Assembly: GCA_965205655.1 (NCBI GenBank)
Contig: CBDBIJ010000146.1
Span: 1-24,733 of the forward strand
Reading direction: 5' to 3'
Source: Candidatus Latescibacterota bacterium
Lineage (GTDB): Bacteria; Latescibacterota; UBA2968; UBA8231
DNA length: 24,733 bases
Below are positions 1 to 22,324 of the stretch, one piece after another (the first letter of the stretch is position 1; every line of letters begins with the position of its first letter). Under the pieces are notes generated by a model that searched no databases, had not been told where the DNA came from, and saw only the letters and a program-made list of their open reading frames with translations. The position numbers were made by a program, and so were the translations under genes.

Positions 1-297
1 GAGCGTCAGGCTGCGCGTCTTCTCCTTCTCCCGGGCCAGCACGGATGGCAGCTCCGCCAGGCTCAGCCGCTGCCGGTTGAGCTCGAGCCTCCCACCGCGG
101 TCGACGGAGGCCACCAGCTTCTTCTCCTCCACTATCGTCGACTCTCGCGCCTGGGGTAACTCCACCTTCAGAGTGTGAGGTTGCTTGAAGACGGTGGTGA
201 CCATGAAGAAGATCAGCAGCAGAAACACGCAGTCGATCATCGGCGTGATGTTGAGCCGCTCGCCCTCCAGATCTTCTTCTATTGTCGTGCGCTCCAT
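1..297 (-). CDS. exbD: ExbD/TolR family biopolymer transporter, second copy (3' end runs off the window edge)
   Basis: Not in the ORF track. Manual translation from ATG at 297, immediately after the TAG of the upstream exbD: MERTTIEEDLEGERLNITPMIDCVFLLLIFFMVTTVFKQPHTLKVELPQARES... It has the canonical ExbD/TolR TM motif with the conserved Asp and is open to position 1. Confidence 0.93.
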   Translation of the reverse strand, partial: MERTTIEEDLEGERLNITPMIDCVFLLLIFFMVTTVFKQPHTLKVELPQARESTIVEEKKLVASVDRGGRLELNRQRLSLAELPSVLAREKEKTRSLTL

Positions 298-717
298 CTA
301 GACCCCGCCCTCTTCCTTGGCAAAGGCGATGCCGGTGACATCCGCCTCCTTGGCGGCGTCCACGACGAGCACGACGTGTTCCTGAGCGCAGTCGGGATGT
401 CCCTGGATGATGATGTTCTCGTTGTTCGCCTCTTTCATGGCCCGCTTGAGCCGCGGCACGAGTCCGGCGGCGACCACGTCCTCGCCGCCGATCTGGATGC
501 GCCCCTGCGCGTCGATGTGGATGTTGACATCCTTCTTCTGCTGCTCCGTCGCCTCACTCTTGGCCGGCATATCCACGTCGAGCCCTTTTGCGTGGATGAA
601 GACGGTAGTGACCATGAAGAAGATCAACAGCAGGAAGACGCAGTCGATCAGCGGCGTCAGGTCGGGGTCGCCCTCCTCGGACAGCTCCCGGCGGATCCGA
701 TGGTGGACCAGCGCCAT
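298..717 (-). CDS. exbD: ExbD/TolR family biopolymer transporter
   Basis: PDLTPLIDCVFLLLIFFMVTTVF transmembrane motif with the conserved Asp, followed by a periplasmic domain ending ...VVLVVDAAKEADVTGIAF. The start overlaps the exbB stop (TGATG). Confidence 0.95.
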   Translation of the reverse strand: MALVHHRIRRELSEEGDPDLTPLIDCVFLLLIFFMVTTVFIHAKGLDVDMPAKSEATEQQKKDVNIHIDAQGRIQIGGEDVVAAGLVPRLKRAMKEANNENIIIQGHPDCAQEHVVLVVDAAKEADVTGIAFAKEEGGV

Positions 718-1463
718 CAGCTGCTCGCCTGCTCGTCGAGCTGTTTCTGCCCGACGACGAGGAGGCTGTTGACGAATGCCAGCCCGTACACCTCCAGCTG
801 GCCGCGAAAATGATCTGCCCGTCGCGCCAGGTAGCGGTAGACGACGATGGAGGGGATGGCGATGGCCAGGCCCGTAGCGGTGGTGACGAGCGCCACCGAG
901 ATGCCGCCGGCCACTACCTTGGGGTCGCCGGTGCCGGCGACGGCTATCGCCTCGAAGGAGGTGATCATGCCCAGGATCGTGCCGAAGAGTCCCAGCAGCG
1001 GCGTGATGTTGCCGATGGTGTTGATCACGACGAGGTGGCGGCTGAGAAAGGCCTTGCCGGCCTCGTCGGTCTCGAGGACGAGCTCGTCTTTGAGGTCGCC
1101 CAGCGACTTCAGTTTCAGCATGAAGTTGGACAGCGCTCCGGCGCCTGCCTGCTCCGACAATTGCGTTAGCTGCTGTTCCGTCCCCTGCATCTCGCGTCGC
1201 TCGAGCATGAGGGTGTCGAAGCGCTTGAGCAGCGAGGCGAAGATGTAGGTGAGCGGGCCGTTGCGCTCGCGGCAGTATTCGGCGACGGCTGCTTCACCTC
1301 TATCGACGAGGCATCTCTCTGCCTCTTCGAGGGTCCTCTGGGACTCCTCTGCGTCGGGCATATGGGCCATGACCCAGAGCCGTTCGAGGGCGTAGCCCAG
1401 CGCTGCCAGAGCACATAGCCCCAAAGGGATCATCAGGATGCCGCCCGATACCAGCGTTTCCAT
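717..1463 (-). CDS. exbB: MotA/TolQ/ExbB proton channel family protein
   Basis: N-terminal GGILMIPLGLCALAALGYALER, then TPLLGLFGTILGMITSFEAI and VVAGGISVALVTTATGLAIAIP. Start placed at ATG 1463 because AGGAG (1471-1475, minus strand) lies 7 nt upstream; the track start at 1526 is probably too long. Confidence 0.93.
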   Translation of the reverse strand: METLVSGGILMIPLGLCALAALGYALERLWVMAHMPDAEESQRTLEEAERCLVDRGEAAVAEYCRERNGPLTYIFASLLKRFDTLMLERREMQGTEQQLTQLSEQAGAGALSNFMLKLKSLGDLKDELVLETDEAGKAFLSRHLVVINTIGNITPLLGLFGTILGMITSFEAIAVAGTGDPKVVAGGISVALVTTATGLAIAIPSIVVYRYLARRADHFRGQLEVYGLAFVNSLLVVGQKQLDEQASS

Positions 1464-1668
1464 CGTCATTCTCCTGTCAACACGGTTGTTTTCACCCGCC
1501 TGTTTCTGAATCTCACGCTGCTGCAAGGGCGCAATATAAAGCCCTTTTCAAGCTGTGACCAATACTTTATTTTGCTGCGTCGGCCTGCGGCTCGCTTGAC
1601 TTGCTGATTCGTAGAAACCAAACTACCCCGGCGTACTGACTCAAGAGACTGCATCGGGTACGAACTCT
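1464..1668. promoter_or_regulatory. Divergent promoter region between exbB and the large plus-strand operon
   Basis: AT-richer non-coding gap between divergent genes. Minus strand: TTGGTC-N18-TATATT (1562 to 1533). Plus strand: TTGACT (1596-1601)-N17-CAAACT (1619-1624), a weak -10. Inverted repeat AAGGGC (1525-1530) / GCCCTT (1541-1546). Confidence 0.45.
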
Positions 1669-4600
1669 ATGGCTCCTTGGCTCATTATCACCGCCCTCAC
1701 CGGGCTCGTGATCGGTTCGCACTTCGTTCCCACACCTGACGAAGTGCAGGCCTCCTTCAAGCAGGCGCAAAGGTTCTACGCCGCCGAGGACTACGAGCAG
1801 GCGATAGAGACCTACGAGCGCATCAACCGGATCGAGAGCCCTCTTCTCTTCAGCTCAGAGATCACGACAGCGGTCGGGGAAATCCACGGTCCGATCCGGG
1901 AAATCGCCTTGTATCAGACCGGCAACAGCTATCTGAAAGACGCCCAGGAGAAGAAAGAGCTGGCGGCGCGCAGCCGGGATCCGCGGGCGCACCGAACGCT
2001 ACCGGGAACAGGCAACCGCCAATTTCGCTCAAGCGGCCACCTATTTTCGCCGCACCGAGTCGGAGTCGCTCACGCCAGGGCTTTCGGACCTCGCCCGCAA
2101 CCGGTTGGTCACCTGCCTCTACGAGAGTGGCGCTTACGACGAGACGGTCGAAGAGGGCCGGGTTTTCCTCGAGAAATACCCCGACAGCGGCTTCCGGGTA
2201 AACGTGCTCTACAATGTTGCCTGGGCCTACTTCGACGCCGAGCGCTATGCCGAAAGCATCGAAGCGTTCGAGAACCTCCAGCTCCATTTTTCCCACCGGA
2301 TACCGCGCTGATCGAGCTCAGTTCCAGATAGGCGAGGCCTACTTCAAGCAGGAACGCTATGCGGAAGCTGTCCCCGCCTACCAGAAGGTGGTCGACCGCC
2401 AGAACATCGGCCAGCTGAGCGAGCGCGAGCTGCTCAAGATGCGGCGCGAGAAGATGGCCGGCCTAGTCGACGAGACGGCCATCGAATTGGCGGCCAAGGC
2501 GCAGATCAAAATAGGCGACAGCCACGCCCGCAATGGCGACTCGGAGGCCGCGGCACAGGCCTATCGCAAAGTGATCGCCGCCTTTGCCCAGGAAAAGCGC
2601 CTGGTCTCTGAGGCGTATATCCGCCTGACCAAAATCTATACAGAAGCGGGAGACCGGGAGGGCGCCGTGCGCGCCTACCGCGAGGCCATCGACGGCAGCC
2701 AGGACCGGATTTTCCAGGCCGGCATGCAGTCTCTGCTGGCCCAATACCATTACGACAGCGGCGACTATCAGCAGGCCATTGCCGAGTACCGCCTCTACCT
2801 CGACGCCTACGGCGACGTGGCGGCGGCGGCTGGTCTCGCGGAGCCGTGGGCGCGCTATAAAATCGGCCGGGCCCATTTTGAAACGGCCGGACTCGAGGGG
2901 CCTGGCCCAGCGACCGGAGAGCGCCAGGGCCTCGTTTCTGAAGGCAATCGAGGTCTACGAGTCGATCGAACGGGACTATCCCCACGGCGAGCTGGCGGCG
3001 GCGGCGGTGCCGTTCAACATCGGCCTCTGCCACCAGCTGATTGGCGGCGAAGGAGCTGCGGTCTCCACGACCTGGGCGCTGGAGCGCTTCGAGGCCATCG
3101 TCGAGGATGGGATAGAGCGGGACTACGTGCGCAGCGCCCTCTTCCAGATCGGACGGATTCGCTTTGAGCGCGGCGACTATCGACCGGCCATCGAAGCCTA
3201 TGAGCAGATCCTGGAGGAATTCCCCGAAGACCCGCAGCTGCCCGGCGCCCAGTTCGAGCTGGCACTCTGCCACCGGGATCTGGGAGAGACAGCGACGGCT
3301 GTCACGACGTTTGACGGCATCGATTCGCAGTCGGAGCTGTTTGCCAAGGCCATGCTGGAGGCCAGCAAACCTGCTGGCAGCCGAGGGCGACCATGCGGCC
3401 GCCATCCAGGCGTTGGACCGGGGCCTGGCAAGTGTTAGTGCCGCGGCCGAACGGGCTCGGTTCTTCTATATGAAGGGCCGCACCCTGATCGAAATAGCCG
3501 ATTTCGAGGGCGCCGTCGGGGCGCTCAGTCAAGCCATCGACCTCACTGAGGATGACGTCGTTCGCGAGGGCGCCCTCTACGGTCGAGGTGTGAGCCTGCT
3601 CAAGCTCAGGCGCCTACCCGAAGCGGCCTCAGATCTGCAGGAGTTGGTGGACGGCGAAAACCCCGAGATGGCCGCTTCTGCCCCGCCGCATGCTGGGCCT
3701 CGTCCATCTCGAGATGGGGCGCGAGGAGGAGGCCATAGCGGATTACGAGTCGCTGGCGGCGGCCGCTGCATCCGAGCAGGAGCGCGCCGAACACCTGGCG
3801 GTCCTGGCGGAGCTCCACTACAGCATGGGGAATCTGGAGCTCCTCGAGTCGCTGTGTCGCGAGCTCATCTCCGCAGACATTCCCGACGAGCGCGGCGACC
3901 AGCCCTACACCCCGAAGGAGAAGGCCTACTTTCTACTCGGGGACGGCTACGGTCAGCAGAAGAACCTCGACGGCCTCGTGGCTACTTATCGCGAAGCGCT
4001 GGACAAATACCCCGACTCCTACTACGCCGGCGACATGCGCTTTGCCCTTGGTCAGGCGCTGTTCGACAGTGGCGATCTCGTCGGCGCGAGCGAGGTCCTC
4101 GAGTCCTATCTGCAGGGCGCACGAGAGACACTCCAACCGGCCGTACGGCTACTACTATCTTGGCTACGCTGTGTTCAACCTGACCCGCTTCGAGAGGGCG
4201 GCGCTCGTCTTCGGCGAGTTGGCCACGACTTACCCCGGCAGCGAGTTGGCGCCGGATGCGCTCTTTCGCGCTGGTGAGGCGGAGTACAATCTGGGCCGTT
4301 TCGACGTAGCGATGGACTCCTATCAGCGTCTTCTCGACGAATACCCCGCCGTCGATCTGGCGGACGACGCACTCTACAACAAGGCATGGTCACTGCTCAA
4401 CCTGGAGCGGGAAAAAGAGGCACTGGCAGGTTTCGCGCGACTTTCTTCCGAGTATTCTGAGAGTCCTCTTGCCGCCAACGCCCAGTTCACCATAGGCGAC
4501 TTCTTATATAATGAGAAGCGCTACGCCGAGGCTCTCGACGCCTACGAGGTAGTGCTGAAGCGCTTTCCCGACAGCAAAGTGGCTCAGAAAGTGCCGCCGC

Positions 4601-4932
4601 TGCTGGAGGATCTGCGCGAGGTCGTGGCCTATCAGACCTACGCCGACGTGGAAGCCGTCTTCGTAAAGGCGCTGGAGGCGCAGGACCCGGACCAGTTCCG
4701 CCAGGCCATAGAGGGGTTCGAAGGAATCGTGGATACGTATCCGGGCACCGAAAGCGAGATCGGGGCGCTCAGCAACATGGGTGTGTGCTACGAGTCCCTG
4801 GGCAATTGGAAGAAGGCTGTCGAAGCCTACGATCTGGTTCTGAGCCGCTTCGAAGGTGAGGCGGCCGAGCAGGTCGAGGCCTATCGCTTCGCTCGCATGC
4901 ACAAGGAATGGATCGAAACCACCCGCCTTTAG
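1669..4932 (+). CDS. Large periplasmic tetratricopeptide-repeat protein (CpoB/BamD-like TPR repeats), about 1085 aa after correcting six apparent +1 frameshifts
   Basis: N-terminal hydrophobic segment MAPWLIITALTGLVIG. TPR-like sequence continues across successive frames (FLEKYPDSGFRVNVLYNVAWAYF; AQFQIGEAYFKQERYAEAVPAYQKV; ALFQIGRIRFERGDYRPAIEAYEQILEEFPED; YPGSELAPDALFRAGEAEYNLGRF). Removing one base from each of six homopolymer runs (1985-87, 2287-91, 2897-2900, 3367-69, 3681-84, 4115-17) joins these into one 3258-nt ORF. Confidence 0.85.
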
Positions 4933-4948
4933 GCGGCTGGGAGAAATT

Positions 4949-6184
4949 TTGACGGATCGGCCCCCAACATCACGGCGGTTTTCTACACCGACGGACTTCC
5001 TGCGGCTGGAAGAGCTGGTGCGGCTGCAGCGACGGCTGACCTACACCGCCGGCGCTGTCGCCTTCGTGCTCCTGATGCTGCCTCTCGGCTACCTCGCCCT
5101 GCGCGACGTCGAGAAGAAAGCCCCCAAGCCGCCGGTGATGCACCTGGTGGTACGCAAGCCGCGCATGACCAAGCCGTTCGAGTTCCAGAAACGTAAGATG
5201 CCGAAGCGGCAGATGACTCGCGAGGTGCGAGCGGCCAAACCCCAGATCGCCCATCGGCCGCAAATCCGCCGGCCCGATCTGGTCGGAAAGATCCAGACCT
5301 TCCAGTTCGGCGTCGACACCGGTGCCGATCTGGGGCTGGAAGTCGTGCAGCCCGACATCAAGCGAGTTGCCATTGAGAGCCCCAAAGAGCCGAGTAAGCG
5401 GATAAGCATGCAGGAGGAGTTCCTCGATCTGGAGGCGCTCGATATCGGCCGCTACAAAGGCCTCGTCATCCAGGATCCGGCAGACAAGCAGAATATCACC
5501 GGCTTCGTCTATCTCGCCCTGGCCTGGGGTAACGATCTCAAGCCCTCCACACAGCGGGCCATCCACGAGCTCGTCGAGGCGATCAACAATTTCACCGATA
5601 TTCGCGCCGAGGTGGACGACCACCTCCTTCTCGACTCCCGCAAGATCTTCCGGGCGCCTTTCGTATACATCACGGCGGAGCAGGCCTTCGAGCCGACGGA
5701 ACGGGAAGTCGCCAACCTGGGGGAATACTTGCGCCAGGGGGGCTTCGCCTTCGTGGAGGCGATGAAGGAGCCCCGGACGCGTTTCGGATCCGTGGCGATC
5801 GAGTACACTCCGTCGGAGGCGTCGCTGCGGGAATTGCTGAAGAGTTCCCTCGGACGTGACGCGCGCTTCCGCGTGCTGCCAAAGGACCATCCGCTCTATC
5901 ACTGCTTTTACGACTTCGACGACGGCCCGCCCCCGCAGCGAACACACGATATCGTCCAGTTTGCCCGGGACTACAGCACTGAAAGACCGTTTCTGGAGGG
6001 GATTTACCTAGGAGATCGACTCGTCGTCGTGTTCTCGAACAAGGAGTACGGCCGGGCTTGGGAAAAGGAATTCCGCAATGAGCCGCAGCTGCAAATCGGG
6101 GTCAACCTGGTCGTTTTCTCCATGACCCAAAAGGGGTCCATCGCCCAGCAGCAGATCGATTTTTACACGGAGAAGACCAAGTGA
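4949..6184 (+). CDS. Membrane-anchored DUF4159 domain-containing protein with a Lys/Pro/Arg-rich linker
   Basis: TTG at 4949 with GGAG 5 nt upstream, just after the TPR gene stop. One TM segment (AGAVAFVLLMLPLGYLAL). The C-terminal region matches the DUF4159 pattern as I recall it (PFVYIT...EVANLGEYLRQGGFAFVE...LPKDHPLYHCFYDF...LEGIYLGDRLVVVFS...QIGVNLVVFSMT). Confidence 0.8.
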   Translation: MTDRPPTSRRFSTPTDFLRLEELVRLQRRLTYTAGAVAFVLLMLPLGYLALRDVEKKAPKPPVMHLVVRKPRMTKPFEFQKRKMPKRQMTREVRAAKPQIAHRPQIRRPDLVGKIQTFQFGVDTGADLGLEVVQPDIKRVAIESPKEPSKRISMQEEFLDLEALDIGRYKGLVIQDPADKQNITGFVYLALAWGNDLKPSTQRAIHELVEAINNFTDIRAEVDDHLLLDSRKIFRAPFVYITAEQAFEPTEREVANLGEYLRQGGFAFVEAMKEPRTRFGSVAIEYTPSEASLRELLKSSLGRDARFRVLPKDHPLYHCFYDFDDGPPPQRTHDIVQFARDYSTERPFLEGIYLGDRLVVVFSNKEYGRAWEKEFRNEPQLQIGVNLVVFSMTQKGSIAQQQIDFYTEKTK

Positions 6185-7428
6185 GGCGTTTTCGATTTCG
6201 GAGACCTATCAAGGGCTCGTGGAGCCTGCCCAGAGAGCTGGCGGTGGTCCTCGTGTGCGGGGTGACAGCCGGCTGTTTCCTCTTCCCCACGGCCATCAAG
6301 CGCGAGACCATCCTGACGCCGGTGGGAGGGGTGGGAGAGCTCTCCAGCGATGAGGAGCAGTACACCGTCCAGGAGAACGGCAACCTGTCCTGGGAGCTAT
6401 CTGGATTGCGGGTCGAGGTGGAGCATATGACCGACGAAAAACTCAACCATCTCTTCCCCGACGAATCGTCGCGTGGCAAATACTCGGCCAACCCCTACAC
6501 CTACGGCAACTGGATCGACACGCGGCTGGGCTACACGCCGAATCGATTCACCGTATTCAAAGTGAGTGTGTACAACCGCACATTCCCAAAGGTCTTGCTC
6601 AATCCCCTCGAAGTCGCACTCGAGACCGACCAGGGCCAGTTCCTATGGACTTATGGAATCACATCAGCCTCACCGCACGAGAATTTCGAGAACTACTACC
6701 GTTCCAGGCGCGGCCAGAGCGGCAACGAGTTCTATCGCTTCGAGCTGCGCATGGGGATGGTTCGCAGCTTCAACTATGAGTTGGACCAGCCCATTTTCAA
6801 GGGGGAGAACTACGGCGGCTATATCGTCTTCGATCCGGTGTACGCCGAAACCGAAAAGGTCGTTCTGTCCCTGAAGAACTTCGTGTTGCGCTTCGGCGCC
6901 TTCGACACGCCGGTGGAAACGCGGGATTTGCGTTTCGAGTTTGCGCACAGTGTGGAGGACCGGCAGATGGAGGACCTCATGGCCGGAGCCAGGGCGGAGG
7001 GAGCGTTGATGGTCTCTGAGAGCGGTCCCAGCCAGATCCATGGGAATCTGCCTGGGGACCGGACCCGCGATGCGGCTGCCATCCGGGCCACGGTGCAGCA
7101 ACGGCTGGCGGCGATCGATCGTTGCTTTGCCGAGCCGTTCGACAATGGCGAAGCCAGCGAGGGCCGCGTGGTGGTCCGTTTCACCATCGGGGTGGGCGGG
7201 GCCATCACCGACGTTTCCGTCACCGAGACGACGGTTGCAAGCGAAGACGTGGGCGACTGCATGGCTCGGGAGGTCGAGCAGTGGGGTTTCCGGCCCGTCG
7301 AAGTTGCCATCGCGCCGCAGACTGTCGATCCGGACGACCCCGGCGGTGCCCGCCGGCGGGCACCGCCGCCAAGGCCCTTGCCGGTCGTGGTGACCTACCC
7401 GTTCGAGTTCGCCGTGGCTTCGCAATAG
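6181..7428 (+). CDS. Probable lipoprotein with a C-terminal TonB-C-like AgmX/PglI-type domain
   Basis: GTG overlaps the upstream TGA. Lipobox-like VVLVCGVTAG-C (Cys codon 6274-6276). C-terminus AIRATVQQRLAAIDRCF...EGRVVVRFTIGVGGAITDVSV...VGDCMAREVEQWGF...VVVTYPFEF fits the AgmX/PglI C-terminal (TonB-C-like) pattern with its two Cys. Confidence 0.75.
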   Translation: MRRFRFRRPIKGSWSLPRELAVVLVCGVTAGCFLFPTAIKRETILTPVGGVGELSSDEEQYTVQENGNLSWELSGLRVEVEHMTDEKLNHLFPDESSRGKYSANPYTYGNWIDTRLGYTPNRFTVFKVSVYNRTFPKVLLNPLEVALETDQGQFLWTYGITSASPHENFENYYRSRRGQSGNEFYRFELRMGMVRSFNYELDQPIFKGENYGGYIVFDPVYAETEKVVLSLKNFVLRFGAFDTPVETRDLRFEFAHSVEDRQMEDLMAGARAEGALMVSESGPSQIHGNLPGDRTRDAAAIRATVQQRLAAIDRCFAEPFDNGEASEGRVVVRFTIGVGGAITDVSVTETTVASEDVGDCMAREVEQWGFRPVEVAIAPQTVDPDDPGGARRRAPPPRPLPVVVTYPFEFAVASQ

Positions 7429-7438
7429 AGAAAGCGCA

Positions 7439-12500: not shown

Positions 12501-12540
12501 CGCCCTCGTCGGCTTCAGCCAGTACGGAAGGCCCTTGTGA
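9505..12540 (+). CDS. Large exported hypothetical protein, putative outer-membrane beta-barrel with an Asp-rich Ca-binding-like insert (paralogue A)
   Basis: 1011-aa ORF with a TTGA overlap with the upstream gene. Signal-peptide-like WWTLSLLLLLWGQPAGVGA, many alternating amphipathic beta-strand-like segments, and motifs shared with 15088-17880 and 17885-20581. The gene call is solid; the barrel assignment is inference. Confidence 0.7.
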   Translation: MTAITHRRATFAPPKTTGLSRSAPWWTLSLLLLLWGQPAGVGADGEDEYLALSEVFEAQPFLRADRPTYSNFAWDTYDHQAEHSYSFQNITGVGFQNRPRAFHGRFGDYLITGYDLYSWQEKRQPGLIAGSSLFKDWTSWHYVFDQLVVGHDSHGSWGYSLIVGDGLIARLSPLTMSKTDFNGARIDLSTPHFKFTTMASRIARPNIEEDWRYNRNTLDEHTINSTMLLGSRAQADLGALRIGLNGANLHAFHALGTNNSIKGVVRPDQPLFDILIVRFTDDSPVDGEGGALVQDVELIIDGAPRPDIRPRVLRHRADTATQVGKNLSSGFLPVNYNLFGGARYYRNEEIPLYADYLYRLAHEDTDFLISLQNGDSGWVDKNGNFVEKNTNLEGLQSTFTVESPDHALAADGTDVLVFVFDLFGVPSMESARIEAIVGNDYRVEVAKLFQFSEKPGNLDVKYRSTVYETVLRAEGNVRDQSNVERVGFEVGTNTSIFTYSADLHFGLPGLEIKGEYARSATFARFPGHTEGAPDFHSSPRFSNKGSASFLNGTSWFGRGRVGFELFAMNPDFTTDMVAHVAQEGGNLGYGRGTSPFSGLDNSTMLWQLVQDNDDGDRYPDVLLGNILGSPISDDGTFPGQDADNDGIVDTNRNLNPLPDYEEPFLMYDVDPNDFVYGMDRNNNDEPDIREDDFDVDYPYDHDQRGYHLFGQYDPTPHWTVGVGRHDVEGIASGGRNNSTYALVTYRWQGLERLRQVFFENHLRRVQDDIPDEYNRFREDVERTFDSPYSTSFTGTYYSLSRDPIIARQDLLLYEDSDVNETYLEGHFRPWPSLNLVQKLRLRLNWQQEGLQPSGIFQRARRLDQWNVVSRADYTRYWGSLKIQPQFKFMLLRLQDQRAERSLRSEVSLIPILRAEYPLMSRSTLQVGIQGIGPFPYRFDDRVAGRNSFERRTKFVNLTNQSSYFGYQLFTIIGLTRDKQEFDDEFQTFREFDSWAFFIRALVGFSQYGRPL

Positions 12541-13016
12541 GAACCCGCCTTGGAATCGCCCTATGTCTGCTCGCCTTGGCCGGCTGCGGAGAGCCGGAGT
12601 ACCTGGACGTCGGTAAAGTGCTGAACAGGACAGAGACCGAGTTGGAGGCCACCTTCGGCAAGCCGGATACGTGGTCCAAGAAGTTTGAAAACGTCAATAT
12701 CCTGCAGTGGAAGAACATTGACGGAGACAGCACCTGGGTGTATCTCGTCGTGCGCGACAGTCTGTCCTGCTACGTGACCTTCTCCTTCAGGGGGATGGAA
12801 CCCTTCGATCAGAAGAAGGCGCTCGAGAAGCTTGGGATTGCGTGGCCGACGGCGGAGCCGCAGCACGAGTGGGAGAACGGCTCGAAGCGCTGGATGCCGC
12901 ATAATGCCTACGAGAAACTCGTCATCGGCAACAGGGAGAAACTCGTGTCGGTGGGTCTTGTGTACCCCTTTCTCGGCCCCGGCGCCGAGGAAAAGCTCGA
13001 CTGGATTAAGGACTGA
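12537..13016 (+). CDS. Small lipoprotein of unknown function
   Basis: MRTRLGIALCLLALAG-C is a textbook lipobox. Overlaps both neighbours (GTGA and TGATG). Confidence 0.85.
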   Translation: MRTRLGIALCLLALAGCGEPEYLDVGKVLNRTETELEATFGKPDTWSKKFENVNILQWKNIDGDSTWVYLVVRDSLSCYVTFSFRGMEPFDQKKALEKLGIAWPTAEPQHEWENGSKRWMPHNAYEKLVIGNREKLVSVGLVYPFLGPGAEEKLDWIKD

Positions 13017-15076: not shown

Positions 15077-15087
15077 GACTGACACAC

Positions 15088-17880
15088 GTGCGCATTTCAG
15101 CGATAAAACCGCCCCTGCTCCTCTTCATGCTGCTTCTCGGTGCCCTTGCACCTTCCTTGGCGGGGGCGCAGTACCTCAACCGGGAATCCTATCCCCTCTG
15201 GACGAACGAGGAGTACGAAAATTACGCCACGTTCAGCTACCGCGATATGCGGCTGACCCGGCCGATCACCGGTGCGGGTCAGGGTAGTCCGAGTGGCGTT
15301 TTTCGGCTCGATGAGGAGCAGCGGGTGTACGATCCATTCGGCTTTACCTTGCTCAACGGCACAACCATCTACAGAACCGAGGAGTACCGCACACTGGCGC
15401 CCTTCGGGGGCAGCACCATCGCCAAGGGCGACATCTACAGAGACCTCTTTCAGAATCTCATCGTCACCAGCGATTCCCACGAGGGATGGGGCTCATCCGT
15501 CATCGTCGGTCGGGGGGTACTGGCCCGGATCAGACCGATGGTGCTGTCCCACTCGCAGATGAACGGCATCCGCTGGGAAGGGGACTCGCGGCGCAACCGT
15601 TTCTCGCTCCTGGGCTCCCGCATCTCTGATCCGCACCGGCTGCGGGTGACTACCCCTCTTACGCGTGATTTCGCGACCTACCTCTTCGGCCTGCACTGGG
15701 AGACCCAGATCGGCAGCGTGCTGCGGTTCAGCACCTCCTACGCCAACACTCACATCACCGATACCCTTCTAGAGAAGGGACGGGGCTCGTTCCGCAAAGG
15801 CGTGTTTCCGGTCGCTCTGTTGGAACCGCAGCACCTGTACGTGGCTGTGAGCGATGACTCACCCGAGGACGGCAACGGCGCCCGCATTCATGAAGTGGAG
15901 ATGTACGTGAGCGGCGAGCTCGCCGCCGCTCCACCGGAGATCCGCGGGATTGGCGATGTCCTGGCGGTGGGGCAGGAAAAGCTCCTGGTCTCGCCGAACC
16001 TGAGCCTGGAGAACCTCCCGCACGCTCGCGAGCGGCAGTCCTGGCTTCCGAAATCCGTCTTGTTCAAGAATCTGGCGACCGAAGTCAACCCGAAGAAGAA
16101 CTTTTTCCTGGACGGCGATGTCCTGGACGGAAGTACGGACGTGCTGGAGGCCGACGGCTTCGGCGCCGTCATCTATCGCTTCGAGGTGCCGGCCGATGCC
16201 GAGGACGTCTCTTTCCGCGCCCGGGTTTCAGGCGACTACGCCATCGATATCGGCGCCCCCATCCGTCGCCAACGCGGCACGCAGATCTGGGGTGACTGGC
16301 GCAACGTGGCGCGCGCCCGGGGCGACGGCGCGGAGGAGCCTCGCTGGGTCGAATTCGGGTACGGCTTTCCCACCGGACTCGAGCTCTACGGTGCCGAAGC
16401 CCATCTGCGTCTTTTCGGTTTCGACGTCCAGGGAGACTACAACGTCAGCACCCAACACCTCGTCTATCCCACCGACGAGGGTGGACGCCTGGACGACAGG
16501 GGTGTGGCCTACTCCTTGGGGGGCCAGCGCAGCTTCGCCCCCTCCCTGAGCGTCGGCTGGGAACTCTTCCGCGTGCCTCCCGACTACGAGACCTCGTTCA
16601 ACTACTTCAACGACGACGTCGGCGACGTCCGCAGGTTCGAGATGGTGGAGGACAACGACGACGTCGACCCCTGGCCGGACAGTTGGGAGCACGACGATCC
16701 ACTCGATTTTGAGAACTGGAGAGACAACACCATTGTGCCGGCCTCTGCCGTCGAGGAAAACATCTATCCGCCGACGAGTCGGGCCCTGGGCTTCGGCGTC
16801 TACCCGGGATTGGACGCCAACGACGACGGGGTCCCCGACACCAACGTCAACGCCAATATTGTCCCCGACTACCTTGAGCCGTTCCTGATGTACTTCGTCG
16901 AGTCGGACGACTTCGTATACGGTGACGACACGAACAACAACGGTGTGGTCGATGCGCGCGAGAACGATAACAAGCCGGACTACACCTACGAGCGCGACAG
17001 CAAGGGTCGCCATCTCTTTTTCGAGATCAAGCCTGTCTCCGGGCTCCGCCTGAGGCTGGGCGGCCACGATATCGACCAGCTCGCCGGCAGGGGCCGCAAC
17101 CGCTCCCTCTACGGCAAGGTCGAGTACGTCGAGAGCCTGACTCCTCGGCTGCATCTGGATCTGCGCCACCGCACCAAGCGGGTCCAGGACGACATTCCCG
17201 ACCCGACTTACCTCTATGTCCTGAGCCCCGAAGCGGCCAAGGCTGACAGAGGTCCGGCCCAGCGGGATATCAACTACCTCCTTCGACTCAGGCCCGATCC
17301 ACTCGATTTTCGCAATAGCCTGGCCAACCTGAGTTACGCGCGGTTGAGTTACGAGCCCATCGAGAGCCTCGATATAAGCACTACCTGGCGCTATGAGCTC
17401 AACCACCGAATCGAAGACACCTTTGACGACGGCGTGTCACAAGCGTCGGGCGACGACTGGTCCCTCGCCGCGGTTAACAAGGCGGACTACGCCTGGAACG
17501 TAGCGCCGAAAGTCGTCGTCACGCCGATGTTGAAGTGGAGCTACCGCCGTCAAGATTCGTCGGTGGCCGACGACACCCTCGTCGACGAGACGAACCTGTT
17601 TCCCATCGTGCGCGCCGATTTCCGCCCGACCGAACAGACCACGCTGAGAGCCGGCCTGCAGGGCTTCCCCTTCTTCAAGCACCGCTTTCGCAGCTCCGTG
17701 GCCCCGGAGCTCGAATACGACGCCTGGCATTACATCGTGGCCCTGCAGAACGCCAGCAACTACACCGGCTACCAGGTCAGCATGAACGTGGGCTTCCGCA
17801 AGTCGTTCAACGACTTCAAGGCCGAGGGTGCGGGCAAGCTCGAGATCTCGGAGTTCTTCCTCCAGGTGAGGACCAATTGA
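15088..17880 (+). CDS. Large exported hypothetical protein, putative outer-membrane beta-barrel with an Asp-rich insert (paralogue B)
   Basis: 930-aa ORF, signal peptide LLLFMLLLGALAPSLAGA-Q. Shares DS..GW, NG.R, DDSP.DG.G, DNDD.D, PDY.EPFL.Y, RVQDDIPD, ADY and QGFP motifs with paralogues A and C. Confidence 0.72.
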   Translation: MRISAIKPPLLLFMLLLGALAPSLAGAQYLNRESYPLWTNEEYENYATFSYRDMRLTRPITGAGQGSPSGVFRLDEEQRVYDPFGFTLLNGTTIYRTEEYRTLAPFGGSTIAKGDIYRDLFQNLIVTSDSHEGWGSSVIVGRGVLARIRPMVLSHSQMNGIRWEGDSRRNRFSLLGSRISDPHRLRVTTPLTRDFATYLFGLHWETQIGSVLRFSTSYANTHITDTLLEKGRGSFRKGVFPVALLEPQHLYVAVSDDSPEDGNGARIHEVEMYVSGELAAAPPEIRGIGDVLAVGQEKLLVSPNLSLENLPHARERQSWLPKSVLFKNLATEVNPKKNFFLDGDVLDGSTDVLEADGFGAVIYRFEVPADAEDVSFRARVSGDYAIDIGAPIRRQRGTQIWGDWRNVARARGDGAEEPRWVEFGYGFPTGLELYGAEAHLRLFGFDVQGDYNVSTQHLVYPTDEGGRLDDRGVAYSLGGQRSFAPSLSVGWELFRVPPDYETSFNYFNDDVGDVRRFEMVEDNDDVDPWPDSWEHDDPLDFENWRDNTIVPASAVEENIYPPTSRALGFGVYPGLDANDDGVPDTNVNANIVPDYLEPFLMYFVESDDFVYGDDTNNNGVVDARENDNKPDYTYERDSKGRHLFFEIKPVSGLRLRLGGHDIDQLAGRGRNRSLYGKVEYVESLTPRLHLDLRHRTKRVQDDIPDPTYLYVLSPEAAKADRGPAQRDINYLLRLRPDPLDFRNSLANLSYARLSYEPIESLDISTTWRYELNHRIEDTFDDGVSQASGDDWSLAAVNKADYAWNVAPKVVVTPMLKWSYRRQDSSVADDTLVDETNLFPIVRADFRPTEQTTLRAGLQGFPFFKHRFRSSVAPELEYDAWHYIVALQNASNYTGYQVSMNVGFRKSFNDFKAEGAGKLEISEFFLQVRTN

Positions 17881-17884
17881 GCTG

Positions 17885-20581
17885 ATGTCGAAAAGAATCC
17901 TCATAATGCTGACCATTCTGGGCGTCATGCGCCCGGCCGTCCACGGCGAAGGTGATCCCCGGCTTCTGGATCCGCATACCGCGGGGACGAGGCTCCTCCT
18001 CTACCGACCGGGACCTCTGACCTACGACAACTACGGCATGGAGAGCTACCGAGCGTGGCCGCGGAATATCCTGACCCGCCAGGCCAATCCGATCTACGAT
18101 GAGTTCGGCAGCTTTCTCGTCAACGGCGTCGAGGTCTACCGCATGCAGGAAACGAGGCGCTTCGACGATCCAATCGCACCCCTCAACGGCAGCCGCATCG
18201 ACAAGACTCCCAACTACGATAACTTCATGAACCGCCTGATGGTCGCCGACGACAGCTACAAGGGCTGGCAGACCAGGCTCATCATCGGTGACCGCATTCG
18301 CACCCACTTCTCGCCTCTCGTCCTCGACCTGGCGCAGCTAAACGGGGTGCGATGGGATCTGTCCAATCGGCACCACTCCTTCAGCGTCGTCTCCTCGCGC
18401 ATGGATCGCCCCGTCCACGTCGGCACCGAAGGCCTTGTAGGCACCGCCGCCTTTGCGGCCTACCTGCTGGGCGGTCACTGGCAGTGGCGCTGGCGCACCA
18501 TCGATATGAGCGCTTCGTACGTCAACCTCTTCCGCATCGACAGCCGCTCGCCGTCGGACTGGAACGGCATGAAGGGTCAGCTGCCCAACCGGCTCCAGCC
18601 GGTGGAACACCTCGTCGTGCGCTTCGATGACAGCTCCGTGCTCGACGGGGAAGGGGCTCGGGTGTTCGATGTCGACCTCTATCTCAACGGCGAGAAGCGC
18701 GACGACATCGTTCCCCTCGTTACGCTCCACAACGCGCAAGATCTCGACGTCTTCAACCAAAACGAGGCCGCATTCTTCCCGCAGCCCGTGCCCCCCTTCG
18801 TGCAGGTGCTCACGCGCCCTGAAAACTACCGCGCCGAACCGGAATCGGGCGGCGGCTACAGCGCAAACGCCAAGAACTACGTGCTCTTCTGGTTTGAGAT
18901 GCCCCAGGAGGAGGCCGTCGAGGAGGCCTCGTTCGAAGCCCTCGTCAGCGGCAATTACCGCATCGGAATCTCGGAGATTTACGCCCCCATTCCCAACTCG
19001 ACGAGTATCAAGGAGCGCAACCGGGCCACTTTCTACCAGGAGGTGGCCGGCTCTGAGGGCCGCGAGACCGCCGGTGCGGGCGTGCGCCGGGTGCGCTTCA
19101 AATACGGACGCCAGACCGGGGTCACCATAACGGATCTGCGAGTGGCGACCGACGTCAAGGGATTTCAGTTCAAGGCCGAATGGGCCCGCAGTCACAACTT
19201 CCTGCAGTACCCGATGAACGCTCACGCAGGCAACCGGCACGACCGCGGTGGCCACGCCTATTTCGTCAACGTGGAGCGCGAGCTGACCCCGCGTTTCTCC
19301 GCGGGAGGGGAGTGGTTCCGTCTCGAGCCGGATTACACCACCACCCTCAGCATCACGGAGATTGGGCTCGATGCGTATGACTCAGTCATTGGGGGGACGA
19401 CACCCGTCCGTCGTGTTCTGAACTATACGATGAATCTGAACACGGTCGACGACAACGACGACAAGGATCCCTTTGCCGACGACTTCTTCCTGATCAACCA
19501 CTCAGACAACAACGGCGTCTTTCCCGGGGTGGACGGCGACCAGGACGGCACCCCGGACACCAATCGCAACCGCAATGCCGTGCCCGACTACTTCGAGCCG
19601 TTCCTGCTTTACGACGTCGATCCGGACGACTTCGCCTTCGGCGATGACCTCAACAACAACGGCGTCATAGACGAACGCGAAAACGACGTGAAACCCGACT
19701 ATCCCTACGACCTCAACCGCGACGGCTACCACCTGTTCGGGCGCATCAGACCACAGCGGGGTCTCGAGCTGACCCTGGGCCGTTACGCCATGGAGGCGAT
19801 CCGCGGAGGCCAGCGCTCGAAGGTGTGGTATGCGAGAGGGGAGTACAATCGGCGCTTTGCGGGCTGGGGCCAGCTGCGGGCCGTGGATTTCCTCAAGCGC
19901 GTGAAGGACGATATACCCGACGACGTGTTTCGCTTTGGCGACCTGGCCAACTTCAACGTCTTCACCCCGAGAGGCATCACCGCTCCCTTCGTGGAAGACC
20001 CGCTCCTCATGCGGAACAGCCTGGTCAATACCGCCTATGTCGATTTCGGCTTCACCGGCTGGCGCAAGTTCTTCGCCGGTGCCAATGTCAAGTTCGACAC
20101 CAACCGACAACAGGATTCCCCACGAGGCGAAAACCTGATCCAGTTGTGGACCTCTGCTCTACGAGCCGATTACCGCTGGCGACTGGGCGAGGTCGAAGTG
20201 ACGCCGCGCTACAAAGTCATGTTTCGCAAACGCGACGACGACGAAGGCGTTATCCATCCGCTTTCAGAGGTCTTCACCTTCCCCATTGTCGTGGTCAACT
20301 ACAAATTCACCAAGAACAGCTGGCTGCGCGGCGGCATGCAGGGTTTTCCGGCAATACCCAGCACCTACCGCAATCTGGAGAACGACGACGTCGATTACGA
20401 CACCCGCGACTACATCCTCATGCTGGTCAACAGCTTCGTCTACTCGGGTTATGACATGGCTATGACTGCCGGTTACGAGATCCGCCAGCGAGACATGGTG
20501 AATCGCGCCAGGGCAGCCGAGGACATCGATTTCGAGCACTTCTTCATCCGCCTGTCCGTGGGCTTGGAACCGGCCGAATAA
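17885..20581 (+). CDS. Large exported hypothetical protein, putative outer-membrane beta-barrel with an Asp-rich insert (paralogue C)
   Basis: 898-aa ORF, signal peptide MSKRILIMLTILGVMRPAVHG. Same conserved motif series as paralogues A and B, ending in an amphipathic strand FFIRLSVGL. Confidence 0.72.
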   Translation: MSKRILIMLTILGVMRPAVHGEGDPRLLDPHTAGTRLLLYRPGPLTYDNYGMESYRAWPRNILTRQANPIYDEFGSFLVNGVEVYRMQETRRFDDPIAPLNGSRIDKTPNYDNFMNRLMVADDSYKGWQTRLIIGDRIRTHFSPLVLDLAQLNGVRWDLSNRHHSFSVVSSRMDRPVHVGTEGLVGTAAFAAYLLGGHWQWRWRTIDMSASYVNLFRIDSRSPSDWNGMKGQLPNRLQPVEHLVVRFDDSSVLDGEGARVFDVDLYLNGEKRDDIVPLVTLHNAQDLDVFNQNEAAFFPQPVPPFVQVLTRPENYRAEPESGGGYSANAKNYVLFWFEMPQEEAVEEASFEALVSGNYRIGISEIYAPIPNSTSIKERNRATFYQEVAGSEGRETAGAGVRRVRFKYGRQTGVTITDLRVATDVKGFQFKAEWARSHNFLQYPMNAHAGNRHDRGGHAYFVNVERELTPRFSAGGEWFRLEPDYTTTLSITEIGLDAYDSVIGGTTPVRRVLNYTMNLNTVDDNDDKDPFADDFFLINHSDNNGVFPGVDGDQDGTPDTNRNRNAVPDYFEPFLLYDVDPDDFAFGDDLNNNGVIDERENDVKPDYPYDLNRDGYHLFGRIRPQRGLELTLGRYAMEAIRGGQRSKVWYARGEYNRRFAGWGQLRAVDFLKRVKDDIPDDVFRFGDLANFNVFTPRGITAPFVEDPLLMRNSLVNTAYVDFGFTGWRKFFAGANVKFDTNRQQDSPRGENLIQLWTSALRADYRWRLGEVEVTPRYKVMFRKRDDDEGVIHPLSEVFTFPIVVVNYKFTKNSWLRGGMQGFPAIPSTYRNLENDDVDYDTRDYILMLVNSFVYSGYDMAMTAGYEIRQRDMVNRARAAEDIDFEHFFIRLSVGLEPAE

Positions 20582-20593
20582 GTCCCAAAAAAG

Positions 20594-22324
20594 ATGTTGC
20601 ACCTCGCGGGTCCGCTGCTCTTCGCGAGCCTTTCCCTCGCTCTCTGCGAGGTCGCGACCGCCAGTCTCCCGCGTTTCACCGACGTGACGAGTGCCGCGGG
20701 GCTGGAATTCCGCAACTGGTACGGCAACGACAACACCGTCACCATACTGGAGACGACGGGCTCTGGCGCGGCGTTCTTCGACTACGACGACGACGGCAAT
20801 CTCGATCTCTACATCGTCAATGGCGGTCTGGGGTTCGAAGGTCCGCGCTTCGAGGGCTTCCCGCGTGACGTGGCACCTCCCGCCGCCGGAACGGCCCCGC
20901 GCAACGCCCTGTTCCGCAACCGGGGCGACGGCTCCTTCGTCGATGTGACTGCGAAGGCCGGTGTCGGGCGTGCGGGGTGGGGTGCCGGCTGCGTGGCTGG
21001 AGACTACGACAACGACAACGATCGAGACCTCTATGTCACTTATTGGGGCCCGAATCAGTTTTATGAGAATGAGGGGGATGGCACATTCGCCGATGTCTCG
21101 GCCAGATCCGGCACCGATCACAGCGGCTACGGCGCGGCCTGCGCCTTCGGCGACTACGACAACGACGGCGATCTGGATTTGTTCGCCGGCAACTACGTGG
21201 AATTCGATCCCGAGACCACCATTCTTCCGGGGGAGCGTCGAGGCGACAAGATCGCCGTGACACGAGATGTGATCACCACGGCCGCGCCAGAGCTGTTCGA
21301 CCCCGAGCCGGACGTCCTCTATCGCAACGAAGGCGACGGCACCTTCGCCGACGTGAGCGCAGAGGCGGGCATCAACCGGGAGTTGGGCCGCGCTCTGGGC
21401 GCCGTGTTCTGGGATTACGACGGCGACGGCGACCAGGACCTCTACGTGGCCAATGATTCGTCACCGAACTTCCTCTATACGAATAACGGCGATGGGACGT
21501 TCGCCGAGGATGGCGCGCGCAGTGGAGTCGCCTACGATATGGATGGCGGCGCCGAGGGCAGCATGGGTGTGGCCGCCGGCGACATCGACAACGACGGCGA
21601 CGAAGATCTCGTGGTGGCCAACTACGAGGTGCAGACGGCCTCCCTTCACCGAAACGACGGCGGGGGCGCCTTTACGAATATCTCCCTCAACTGGGGTGTC
21701 TCTCGGACGACGATCATGCCGGTCCAGTGGGGGACGATTTTACTGGACTACGATCGCGACGGCGACAGCGATCTGTTCATGGCCAACGGCCACATCACCG
21801 CCGCTTTCGAAAAACACTACCCTCAGTTCAAGTACGGCCAGAGAAACCAGTTATTCCGCAACGACGGCGATACCTTCGTCGACGTGTCAGCGACCTCCGG
21901 CGAGGCCATGCGCACGGCGCGCTCCAGTCGAGGCACAGCCGTCGGCGACTACGACAACGACGGAGACGAGGACCTGTTCGTGGTCAACAAGAACGACCTC
22001 CCGAACCTCTTGCGGAACGACTCGGTCAATGACAATCACTGGCTCACGGTCCGCACCAGAGGCATCCGCAGCAACCGGGACGGCGTCGGCGCCAGGGTCC
22101 GGGTCGTGACCGGCGGGAGCGCGCAGATGCGAGAGGTGCGGGCCGGCTCGAGCTACTTGTCCCACAACAGCTTATGCGTATTCTTCGGCCTCGGAGCCGA
22201 GACGGTGGTGGACACCCTGCAGATCCGTTGGCCCTCCGGACATACCGAGACGATCGCCGATGTCGAGGGAAACCGGGCAGTGACCGTGCGGGAGGGCGAC
22301 GGCATCACCTCTGCCGAACCATAG
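20594..22324 (+). CDS. CRTAC1-family protein (FG-GAP/VCBS-like repeats plus C-terminal ASPIC/UnbV domain)
   Basis: Signal peptide, then FTDVT..AGL, seven D(Y/I)D.D(G/N)..DL repeats and RN.GDG(T/S)F.DV repeats. C-terminal NRDGVGARVRV...REVRAGSSYLSHNS...FGLG...LQIRWPSG. Confidence 0.92.
   Translation: MLHLAGPLLFASLSLALCEVATASLPRFTDVTSAAGLEFRNWYGNDNTVTILETTGSGAAFFDYDDDGNLDLYIVNGGLGFEGPRFEGFPRDVAPPAAGTAPRNALFRNRGDGSFVDVTAKAGVGRAGWGAGCVAGDYDNDNDRDLYVTYWGPNQFYENEGDGTFADVSARSGTDHSGYGAACAFGDYDNDGDLDLFAGNYVEFDPETTILPGERRGDKIAVTRDVITTAAPELFDPEPDVLYRNEGDGTFADVSAEAGINRELGRALGAVFWDYDGDGDQDLYVANDSSPNFLYTNNGDGTFAEDGARSGVAYDMDGGAEGSMGVAAGDIDNDGDEDLVVANYEVQTASLHRNDGGGAFTNISLNWGVSRTTIMPVQWGTILLDYDRDGDSDLFMANGHITAAFEKHYPQFKYGQRNQLFRNDGDTFVDVSATSGEAMRTARSSRGTAVGDYDNDGDEDLFVVNKNDLPNLLRNDSVNDNHWLTVRTRGIRSNRDGVGARVRVVTGGSAQMREVRAGSSYLSHNSLCVFFGLGAETVVDTLQIRWPSGHTETIADVEGNRAVTVREGDGITSAEP

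Follow-up and report, generated by a model that had tools for sequence, protein, structure and literature searches.

A conserved ExbBD-linked envelope system with an unnamed family of giant predicted barrels in Latescibacterota

Closest described systems and the locus

To our knowledge, few outputs are known for ExbB/ExbD-type motors, namely nutrient import, outer-membrane upkeep and Myxococcus gliding. We analyzed a 24,733-nucleotide (24.7-kb) stretch of DNA from a Candidatus Latescibacterota bacterium (contig CBDBIJ010000146.1 of assembly GCA_965205655.1; below, the window), which is a whole contig of a 4.0-Mb genome that is 84% complete. In it, an exbB-exbD-exbD motor cluster lies beside an operon for a giant tetratricopeptide repeat (TPR) protein, a DUF4159 protein, a lipoprotein, discoidin proteins and three giant paralogues predicted to form outer-membrane barrels. 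In our view, these genes belong to a real envelope system, driven by protons and conserved over much of the phylum Latescibacterota, which has apparently not been described before and brings in a new barrel family. The system joins a motor gene set to predicted very large outer-membrane pores, may well be a powered import gate for large nutrients, and gives ExbB/ExbD-type motors an association with an unnamed barrel family that counts dozens of members per genome in some cases. No description of it was found in the literature searched, most subscription journals and supplements lying outside that search. The available part of one genome-based account portrays Latescibacteria as polymer degraders and mentions ordinary TonB import alone (PMC4454575).

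The motor genes run left on the minus strand from position 1526, and ten plus-strand genes, from 1669 to 22324, diverge from them. Pfam and NCBIfam profile scans covered 20 open reading frames (ORFs) of the window. The features, with coordinates and strand, are as follows.

1..297, minus: exbD/tolR-like subunit 2, truncated where the contig begins (PF02472, E 4e-20; membrane Asp)
298..717, minus: exbD/tolR-like subunit 1, 139 amino acids (aa) (PF02472, E 3e-25)
717..1526, minus: exbB/tolQ-like proton channel (PF01618, E 4e-27); true start likely near 1465
1669..4932, plus: giant TPR scaffold, 1085 aa without six inserted bases; TPR families in all pieces
4949..6184, plus: candidate TonB-like transducer with membrane helix, Pro/Lys/Arg-rich linker and DUF4159 head (PF13709, E 2e-29)
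6181..7428, plus: lipoprotein (Cys32) with immunoglobulin (Ig)-like N-domain and predicted TonB-C-fold C-domain (NF033768, 60.9 bits, cut-off 40)
7439..9508, plus: secreted discoidin (F5/8 type C) protein 1, type-B-like C-terminal Ig domain (PF00754, E 8e-8)
9505..12540, plus: giant barrel paralogue 1, 1011 aa, 28% identical to paralogues 2 and 3
12537..13016, plus: small lipoprotein, 159 aa, lipobox by eye, no Pfam match; homologue at 13 of 73 barrel loci
13016..15076, plus: secreted discoidin protein 2, type-B-like C-terminal Ig domain (PF00754, E 2e-8)
15088..17880, plus: giant barrel paralogue 2, 930 aa; directly 3' of a tagged discoidin gene in orthologous regions
17885..20581, plus: giant barrel paralogue 3, 898 aa, modeled with AlphaFold2
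20594..22324, plus: FG-GAP/ASPIC-UnbV (CRTAC1-like) secreted protein, apparently accessory (PF13517, PF07593)
23800..24733, plus: N-terminal half of a ~620-aa secreted protein, cut by the contig end; homologues at barrel loci

Gaps between the ten plus-strand genes range from -4 to +16 nucleotides (nt), and all but one junction are at most +12 nt; the widest, 16 nt between the TPR and DUF4159 genes, is measured to the TTG at 4949. The operon products carry N-terminal signal peptides, lipoboxes or, once, a membrane anchor, as read by eye from the sequences without a predictor. Both the compact divergent layout and the envelope address of every product had been claimed in an earlier note on this DNA and are borne out by the coordinates, families, gaps and N-termini. 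The same holds for its remark that the window has no TonB-dependent receptor, TolB or Pal: neither such a receptor nor a TolA, TolB or Pal family was found among the 20 ORFs (the rest of the genome was not searched for Tol-Pal). Contigs from other runs span the lipoprotein-discoidin 1-barrel 1, barrel 1-small lipoprotein-discoidin 2 and barrel 2-barrel 3-FG-GAP junctions. Hence, the operon order is genuine at these three junction sets, where a misassembled gene order is ruled out. A promoter scan of 1400-1750 gave one 9/12 site towards exbB, which was not used in the interpretation.

The system works most like Ton. As in Ton and SusC/SusD, an ExbB/ExbD motor is present, the tonB position is taken by a helix-linker-head protein, the operon includes a TonB-C fold, one motor goes with many barrels, and binding-type surface partners are encoded beside the barrels. 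Yet it departs from Ton in two defining features. Where Ton has an inner-membrane TonB with a TonB-C head, the anchored protein here carries DUF4159, and the TonB-C fold is predicted on the lipoprotein. Where Ton has a 22-strand barrel with an N-terminal plug (PF00593/PF07715), the barrels here have about 24 predicted strands, two large inserted domains, no PF00593 or other Pfam match, and no classical plug. Moreover, the surface partners are discoidin proteins tagged with a C-terminal domain (CTD) and not SusD, and a 1085-aa TPR protein is a core part. Force transducers headed by von Willebrand factor A (vWA) domains resemble the locus in the run of TPR, tolQ-like and two tolR-like genes followed by a helix-linker-head gene without TonB-C. 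They differ in that their head is vWA and not DUF4159, and in that a helix His is conserved in them, as opposed to 21 of 36 homologues here, the window copy lacking it; section 8 of the source names no giant barrels or tagged surface proteins for them (PMC12204202).

Resemblance to type IX secretion systems (T9SS) lies in the type-B-like CTD gene directly 5' of the barrel gene, as described for type B cargo and PorP/SprF shuttles in the available part of PMC12618676. The genome also has SprA (TIGR04189 over cut-off) and PorV-family genes (NF033709, 7 genes over cut-off). Unlike in T9SS, the barrels are about 900-1000 aa without a PF11751 match and the motor is ExbBD; the SprA gene lies outside the window locus, and the system is not a T9SS locus. 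PF11751 (PorP/SprF) was not found in the source genome, a search run without a control, and GldM and GldN were not found in 5 genomes, with no control genome giving a match and GldK/GldL not searched. In the accessible parts of the sources, T9SS is given as Bacteroidetes-restricted in 2015 (10.1101/031039) and as possibly present in other Fibrobacteres-Chlorobi-Bacteroidetes (FCB) phyla in 2024 (PMC11285876), and Latescibacteria are not named in a third (PMC13543919). A single-copy SprA gene was observed in all 41 genomes tested from the class (in the source genome, G000, at C68:35174-41281), and a FliG-like gene lies near sprA, as a Pfam match in G008 (L151:5626-6817) and by resemblance in G000 (C68:26728-28101).

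The earlier note had drawn a parallel to the Myxococcus Agl-Glt machine. The locus has in common with Agl-Glt/Nfs (PMC3858216) one TolQ-like and two TolR-like subunits, a TPR protein, a TonB-C-like domain and several predicted outer-membrane barrels. The parallel stands for the motor subunit set, although this layout is not specific to Agl-Glt because a TonB operon elsewhere in the source genome (C37) has it too. Beyond the motor it is not supported: the locus has no GltG-type transducer, all Glt models stay below their cut-offs, the lipoprotein is what carries the TonB-C fold, and DUF4159 occupies the tonB position. The GltG/NfsG model (NF033760) gave 30.9 bits against a cut-off of 650, over the C-terminal 74 residues of the lipoprotein only, and the system is therefore not Agl-Glt. 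The GltA/B/H barrels are small, and the giant barrels are much larger. No NCBIfam model of any kind matched the three barrels, a result obtained without a direct Glt-barrel profile comparison.

Conservation of the motor, scaffold and barrels

Conserved gene order was observed at several distances. In ten orthologous regions from 8 genomes, chosen by best lipoprotein matches, at least two barrels, the giant TPR, DUF4159 and the lipoprotein were always present, and a discoidin gene was present in 8; two regions begin inside barrels. The motor is orthologous and divergent upstream in 4 of these regions, a more distant exbB-exbD-exbD lies downstream in 3, and the remaining 3 have none in the stretch. 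exbB orthologues diverge from the orthologous cluster in the relatives G002, G008, G018 and G021. In a wider set of 73 barrel loci (from the best 80 of 658, with 10-kb flanks, some genomes giving several loci), we counted the lipoprotein at 49, the giant TPR at 42, DUF4159 at 34 and exbB at 14, as well as a SurA-like isomerase at 19 and a PorV-like gene at 12, the latter two with profiles built from the source genome's own loci. A TonB-dependent receptor was found at none of the 73.

Twelve regions from six distant families were also compared. The order there starts with the gene for a CTD protein and continues with a PorV-like gene, two barrels in a row, TPR, one or more small genes, exbB, exbD, exbD, DUF4159 and the lipoprotein. 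It was complete in 3 regions, present for the most part or cut by contig ends in 4, and replaced by satellite cassettes without a motor in the stretch in 5. Family f10 showed the full operon in 3 of 5 regions, the other two being without one gene or cut by a contig end, and family f13 had a similar order. A single collinear operon thus occurs in distant families of 41-59% G+C. In 8 near-complete genomes, exbB lay within 25 kb of the giant TPR gene in 15 of 20 cases vs 0.8 expected; with fragmented genomes included, the figure was 28 of 47. The link between motor and operon, which the earlier note had asked to see in relatives, is accordingly kept. Its proposal of one ExbBD-linked envelope machine with an unnamed barrel family is supported by synteny and co-occurrence, and we consider it highly probable that the parts form one machine.

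Co-occurrence was examined among 40 relatives: barrel and lipoprotein were found in 24/24 genomes of the family vs 0/16 from three sister families, and the giant TPR in 22/24 vs 0/16 (18 candidates scored per genome). DUF4159 gave 4-16 matches per family genome vs 1-2 elsewhere in the class. Because the groups are kin, these presences and absences amount to few independent events. Across the phylum, 69 of 121 genomes, from 10 of 14 families, had the lipoprotein; it went undetected in four whole families and was single-copy in most f10 genomes. The barrel was detected in 9 of 15 distant genomes tested and not found in five genomes of family f8 or in one small incomplete genome. Barrel loci also appeared in records labeled Zipacnadia, Nitrospinota, Myxococcales, Handelsmanbacteria and Planctomycetota (L075, L085, L090, L091, L094); these are submitters' labels and may be wrong.

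Predicted structures of the barrels and their partners

The three large proteins are paralogues with 28-30% identity over about 900 aa, and neither Pfam nor NCBIfam has a family that matches them. Three further copies of paralogue 1, at 75-79%, occur elsewhere in the genome, which gave 19 barrel profile matches, counted as about 16 genes. With an alignment from a search that found 104 homologues among 7999 scored candidates, AlphaFold2 modeled paralogue 3 at a predicted local distance difference test score (pLDDT) of 86.2 and a predicted template modeling score (pTM) of 0.87. The model has 23 long strands between residues 118 and 894, plus shorter strands earlier, and predicts a barrel of about 24 strands (24-26); residues 14-64 are of low confidence. 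Between strands, the model places a beta-sandwich (220-408) and an Asp-rich stretch (481-611), both probably in outer loops when counted back from a periplasmic C-terminus. Within the barrel, conservation is highest in the Asp-rich core, where 30 of 97 positions are at least 90% conserved vs 17 of 283 in the C-terminal barrel. Its D-x-D-x-D-G motifs, which we take to be calcium-binding, suggest that the stretch binds calcium.

Sequence and fold searches named no close solved relative. Foldseek gave a best template modeling (TM) score of 0.27 (MtrB), and its top row by E-value was SlpA (E 7e-9, TM 0.19, root-mean-square deviation (rmsd) about 20). A wide structural search reached Z 13.4, spread across unrelated or small porins at 3-12% identity, and a PDB sequence search with the barrel profile gave no match under E 0.02. 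The likeness to SlpA, MtrB, LptD and ushers is that of a generic wide beta-barrel fold; SlpA has 30 strands, MtrB and LptD 26, and ushers 24. Assignment to one known barrel family by fold was rejected, none having been singled out. SlpA_C matched 5 of 10 barrel homologues below cut-off, over about 100 residues. A whole-library profile search yielded 402 clusters (50% identity) at E 1e-30 or better, and an atlas look-up (0.99) returned unnamed Latescibacterota and Gemmatimonadota clusters with no common Pfam among 30 matches. The large proteins are not ordinary TonB-dependent receptors. The earlier description of three giant barrel-like paralogues therefore fits both the identities and the confident model, and the profile and structure searches assign them to no characterized system.

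Both ExbD helices carry the membrane Asp (LTPLID and ITPMID), and the motor genes reach the Pfam cut-offs of PF01618 and PF02472, meaning that Ton-type ExbB/ExbD subunits are present; the window exbB does not reach the TIGR equivalog cut-offs for exbB/tolQ. At G000:C18:20415-21158, an exbB that shares 50% identity with the window gene stands by itself, 14 kb from a barrel fragment and with no exbD beside it. The large TPR gene of the earlier note encodes a real giant protein, although it is not one open frame in the assembly. It is broken into seven pieces in different frames by six single extra bases (1985, 2287, 2897, 3367, 3681 and 4115). All six are absent from contigs of three of four runs (X1, X3, X4; two samples), two of which span the whole gene in a single contig, and the fourth run (X2, depth about 2) falls into short contigs at the six places. 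Because three of four runs lack the extra bases, the breaks are likely assembly errors; without them the frame encodes 1085 aa with no internal stop. Orthologous regions have one open frame of at least 1081 codons in 10 of 10 cases, and the pseudogene reading was rejected. Several paralogous loci in the assembly are broken much like this gene. A single TPR piece scores above the YbgF/CpoB cut-off, in what is a match of the generic TPR kind.

The DUF4159 gene lies directly 3' of exbB-exbD-exbD in distant families, i.e. in the tonB position. Among 36 distinct homologues, 21 have a His in the helix, in many cases within an S-x-x-L-H motif. In the literature searched, the term DUF4159 turned up only in a Pfam release note, and the system would give the membrane-anchored form a first functional context. 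A 597-aa DUF4159 protein with a TonB-like S-T-L-L-H helix is encoded outside the motor operons, near a TonB-dependent receptor gene (G000:C12:9605-11398). For the lipoprotein, the earlier call of a TonB-C-like domain agrees with the NF033768 match over cut-off and with the predicted fold (pLDDT 88.8). Its C-domain superposes on TonB C-terminal domains at Z 7.2-8.0 and rmsd 2.4-2.9 over 78-90 residues, with Foldseek E-values of only 0.002-0.09. The N-domain resembles YcdA/MPT63 (Z 6.8-8.1), and its atlas matches stayed under 0.9. It is the N-domain that was found at the 49 barrel loci, the TonB-C C-domain being present at 15.

The discoidin proteins are 47% identical. Their tails align as a conserved Ig domain that has the motif P-N-G-D-G-x-N and closes with V-x-V-x-Y. 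These domains are weakly like T9SS type B signals: FlgD_ig and CHU_C are below cut-off (protein 2), protein 1 gave 14 bits for TIGR04131 against a cut-off of 35, and the window CTDs are below the TIGR04131 and TIGR04183 cut-offs. Two paralogues pass Pfam CHU_C (43.7 and 28.9 bits, cut-off 27). The earlier note's description of CTD-tagged surface proteins holds for the discoidin proteins; a C-terminal tag is absent from the FG-GAP/ASPIC protein. A separate group of ~300-aa secreted proteins, one with a weak CBM9-like match, ends in T-A-V-E-x-x-S-W-G-x-I-K, which looks like an unnamed short sorting signal (genes in G000 at C5:30619-31527, C73:9499-10398, C91:27624-28526, C138:5592-6512 and C143:15050-24099). 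A second motor locus, heavily frameshifted in the assembly, was seen at G000:C143:7279-14878, with the lipoprotein N-domain, a PorV-like barrel, giant TPR, exbB, exbD and DUF4159, and with tailed genes and an isomerase upstream.

Proposed powered import, competing explanations and accessory genes

Import of large nutrients is our favored output for the machine, at a probability of roughly 0.45. In this mechanism, the ExbB-ExbD-ExbD motor, DUF4159 protein, TPR protein, TonB-C-fold lipoprotein and barrels would act as one Ton-like machine, the motor pulling on the barrels and so importing large nutrients caught by tagged surface proteins nearby. The DUF4159 protein may be the TonB-equivalent arm, because it follows exbB-exbD-exbD and has the helix-linker-head build, and the TPR protein and lipoprotein would bridge this arm to the barrels. 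Instead of a plug, the Asp-rich insert or the short N-terminal region could gate the pore. The discoidin proteins might exit via the resident SprA translocon and dock on the adjacently encoded barrel as SusD-like catchers, with glycans or other polymers as possible cargo.

This reading draws on the ratio of barrels to scaffolds. The relative G008, assembled as one contig, has 1 giant TPR, 1 lipoprotein, 2 exbB and at least 22 barrel matches of 84 candidates, and in genera g3 and g9 the paralogue 1 type has multiplied to dozens of copies that stand on their own (49-84 candidates). One scaffold operon with dozens of dispersed barrels therefore favors energized uptake over export or display. Around 20 dispersed G008 barrels (127/133 test and 141/158 control ORFs scanned, in this one genome), DUF6785 membrane proteins, which we take to be transporters, turned up in 5 of 20 regions and in none of the controls (6/127 vs 0/141 proteins, Fisher p 0.011). 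Other neighbors of these barrels were sulfatases, rhamnosidases, BNR proteins and sensor-propeller regulators, and the F5/8 type C domains of the partner proteins count for uptake as well. In F. succinogenes, TPR genes (FSU_2397-2398) adjoin exbB-exbD-exbD-tonB (FSU_2400-2403), which is upregulated on cellulose and hypothesized to import cellodextrins, according to the available part of PMC6851124.

Several observations weigh against import. Glycan and sulfate enzymes near dispersed barrels were not significantly enriched (11/127 vs 5/141, p 0.12), and these categories were picked after the lists were seen. Most dispersed G008 copies fall within one accessory-rich chromosome part, many at C1:5.2-6.4 Mb among sulfatases, sensor-propeller regulators and transposases. 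Ordinary TonB-dependent receptors give 13-24 matches in system-bearing genomes, and the source genome also has a normal exbB-exbD-exbD-tonB-like operon (contig C37). No classical receptor plug or TonB box was seen in the barrel, and the window DUF4159 copy and its closest orthologues lack the helix His. Finally, the core operon has two or three fixed barrel types, often with PorV-like genes (12/73) and SurA-like isomerases (19/73), neighbors that fit protein handling equally well. The earlier note had left a list of functions open. Of these, uptake is the one toward which the evidence tilts, and its chief competitor is the export or display of proteins. Should polymer import be true, the system would give this uncultured group a second way of doing what SusC/SusD accomplish in Bacteroidota. 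A tentative, broader view is that Ton, Tol and Agl-Glt are joined here by another class of proton-driven trans-envelope machine, one of long standing within Latescibacterota. It would have a DUF4159 transducer head, a family of plug-less giant barrels gated by a calcium-binding insert and a short sorting tail of its own, and it would both dock T9SS-type surface proteins and move macromolecules over the outer membrane in a manner unlike TonB-box pulling.

The strongest competing explanation, which we hold to be somewhat unlikely, is that the machine exports, folds or displays tagged proteins, with the barrels as oversized cognate shuttles or a second translocon. GldLM powers protein secretion in Bacteroidota, and here ExbBD would replace that energy supply for cargo with a type-B-like domain or a W-G-x-I-K tail. 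Gene order supports this: of 128 barrel genes, 48 are preceded by a type-B-like CTD gene, a further 48 by another barrel and 11 by a PorV-like gene, and 8 of 12 type-B-like CTD genes in the source genome are directly 5' of a barrel, the layout noted above for type B cargo and its shuttles. The tail, whose profile was built mostly from the source genome's family, occurred in 24/24 genomes of that family (4-85 matches each) vs 1/16 of the others; family f8 yielded neither the tail (0/5) nor the barrel. In the source genome, eight of 12 tailed genes (two of the 12 doubtful) have a barrel or lipoprotein gene no more than 10 kb away, against a background of 167 of 3764 genes. The presence of SprA and PorV-like genes in the genome, together with the failure to find GldM and GldN in the control-less search, points the same way.

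Export is opposed by the distribution of its supposed partners. SprA is present in 41/41 genomes, 16 of them without the system; the system is thus not what SprA generally needs, and a role as required motor of SprA was rejected. In family f10, where the system is present, a mere 1 of 13 genomes has the tail, and the view of the tail as obligate cargo was rejected on this ground. Most dispersed barrels have no adjacent type-B-like gene, barrel candidates and tails are out of proportion in G008 (84 vs 7) and G015 (37 vs 85), and the window CTDs fall under the T9SS cut-offs. Across 25 related genomes, barrel-candidate counts correlated with tail counts (rho 0.52) and did not correlate with lipoprotein counts (rho -0.07); no weight was given to these values because a candidate count differs from a copy number and related genomes are not independent samples. 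A complex prediction for the discoidin 2 C-terminal domain with barrel 2 (48-930) scored 0.00 and carries no weight either way. If export is true, the system bears on surface-protein handling in SprA-bearing bacteria where GldLM was not found (GldM was looked for and GldL not searched). Import and export or display can both be partly true, with tagged proteins docked on the barrels as catchers.

We consider it improbable that the machine works as Agl-Glt/Nfs does, transporting polymers or surface adhesins along the cell in the service of gliding, adhesion or the building of a coat. The one TolQ-like and two TolR-like subunits, the TPR protein and the passed AgmX/PglI C-terminal model agree with such a role, and Agl-Glt/Nfs are called a versatile class of surface transport motors in the accessible part of PMC3858216. 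Apart from the low GltG score, however, GltJ reached only 16 bits against 450, the TonB-C fold is on a lipoprotein instead of an inner-membrane arm and is absent from most homologues, and motility hardly accounts for dozens of barrels scattered among catabolic genes. Equally improbable is a Tol-like or S-layer-like role in building or keeping the outer membrane, with the barrels as calcium-stabilized porins related to Deinococcus SlpA. The top Foldseek row, the weak SlpA_C matches, the single lipoprotein copy in most f10 genomes and the YbgF/CpoB match of the TPR piece are in line with it. The SlpA superposition is nevertheless poor and SlpA_C below cut-off, the window has no TolB or Pal, four whole families appear to lack the system, and barrel numbers vary from few to dozens. 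That an ordinary Ton motor stands beside an unrelated surface-protein operon by chance, as its divergent transcription in the window and the 5 of 20 giant-TPR genes without exbB within 25 kb might suggest, is very improbable and largely refuted by the 15 of 20 cases vs 0.8 expected and the one collinear operon in distant families.

Three genes lie at the end of the window. The FG-GAP/ASPIC protein, present at 15 of 73 barrel loci and with 24 tblastn matches in the genome, looks accessory. Convergent on the operon, a minus-strand gene (22339-23604) encodes a 421-aa secreted TPR protein; similar TPR genes adjoin FG-GAP/ASPIC genes at other loci, and it is at most a candidate member of the system. 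The earlier note placed the boundary at 22324, which holds for the ten-gene operon and leaves out the gene starting at 23800, also a cluster member. Homologues of the latter occur at 23 of 73 barrel loci and in 5/20 dispersed-barrel regions vs 0/20 control regions, and those of full length end in a T9SS-like C-terminal Ig domain (FlgD_ig twice, CHU_C).

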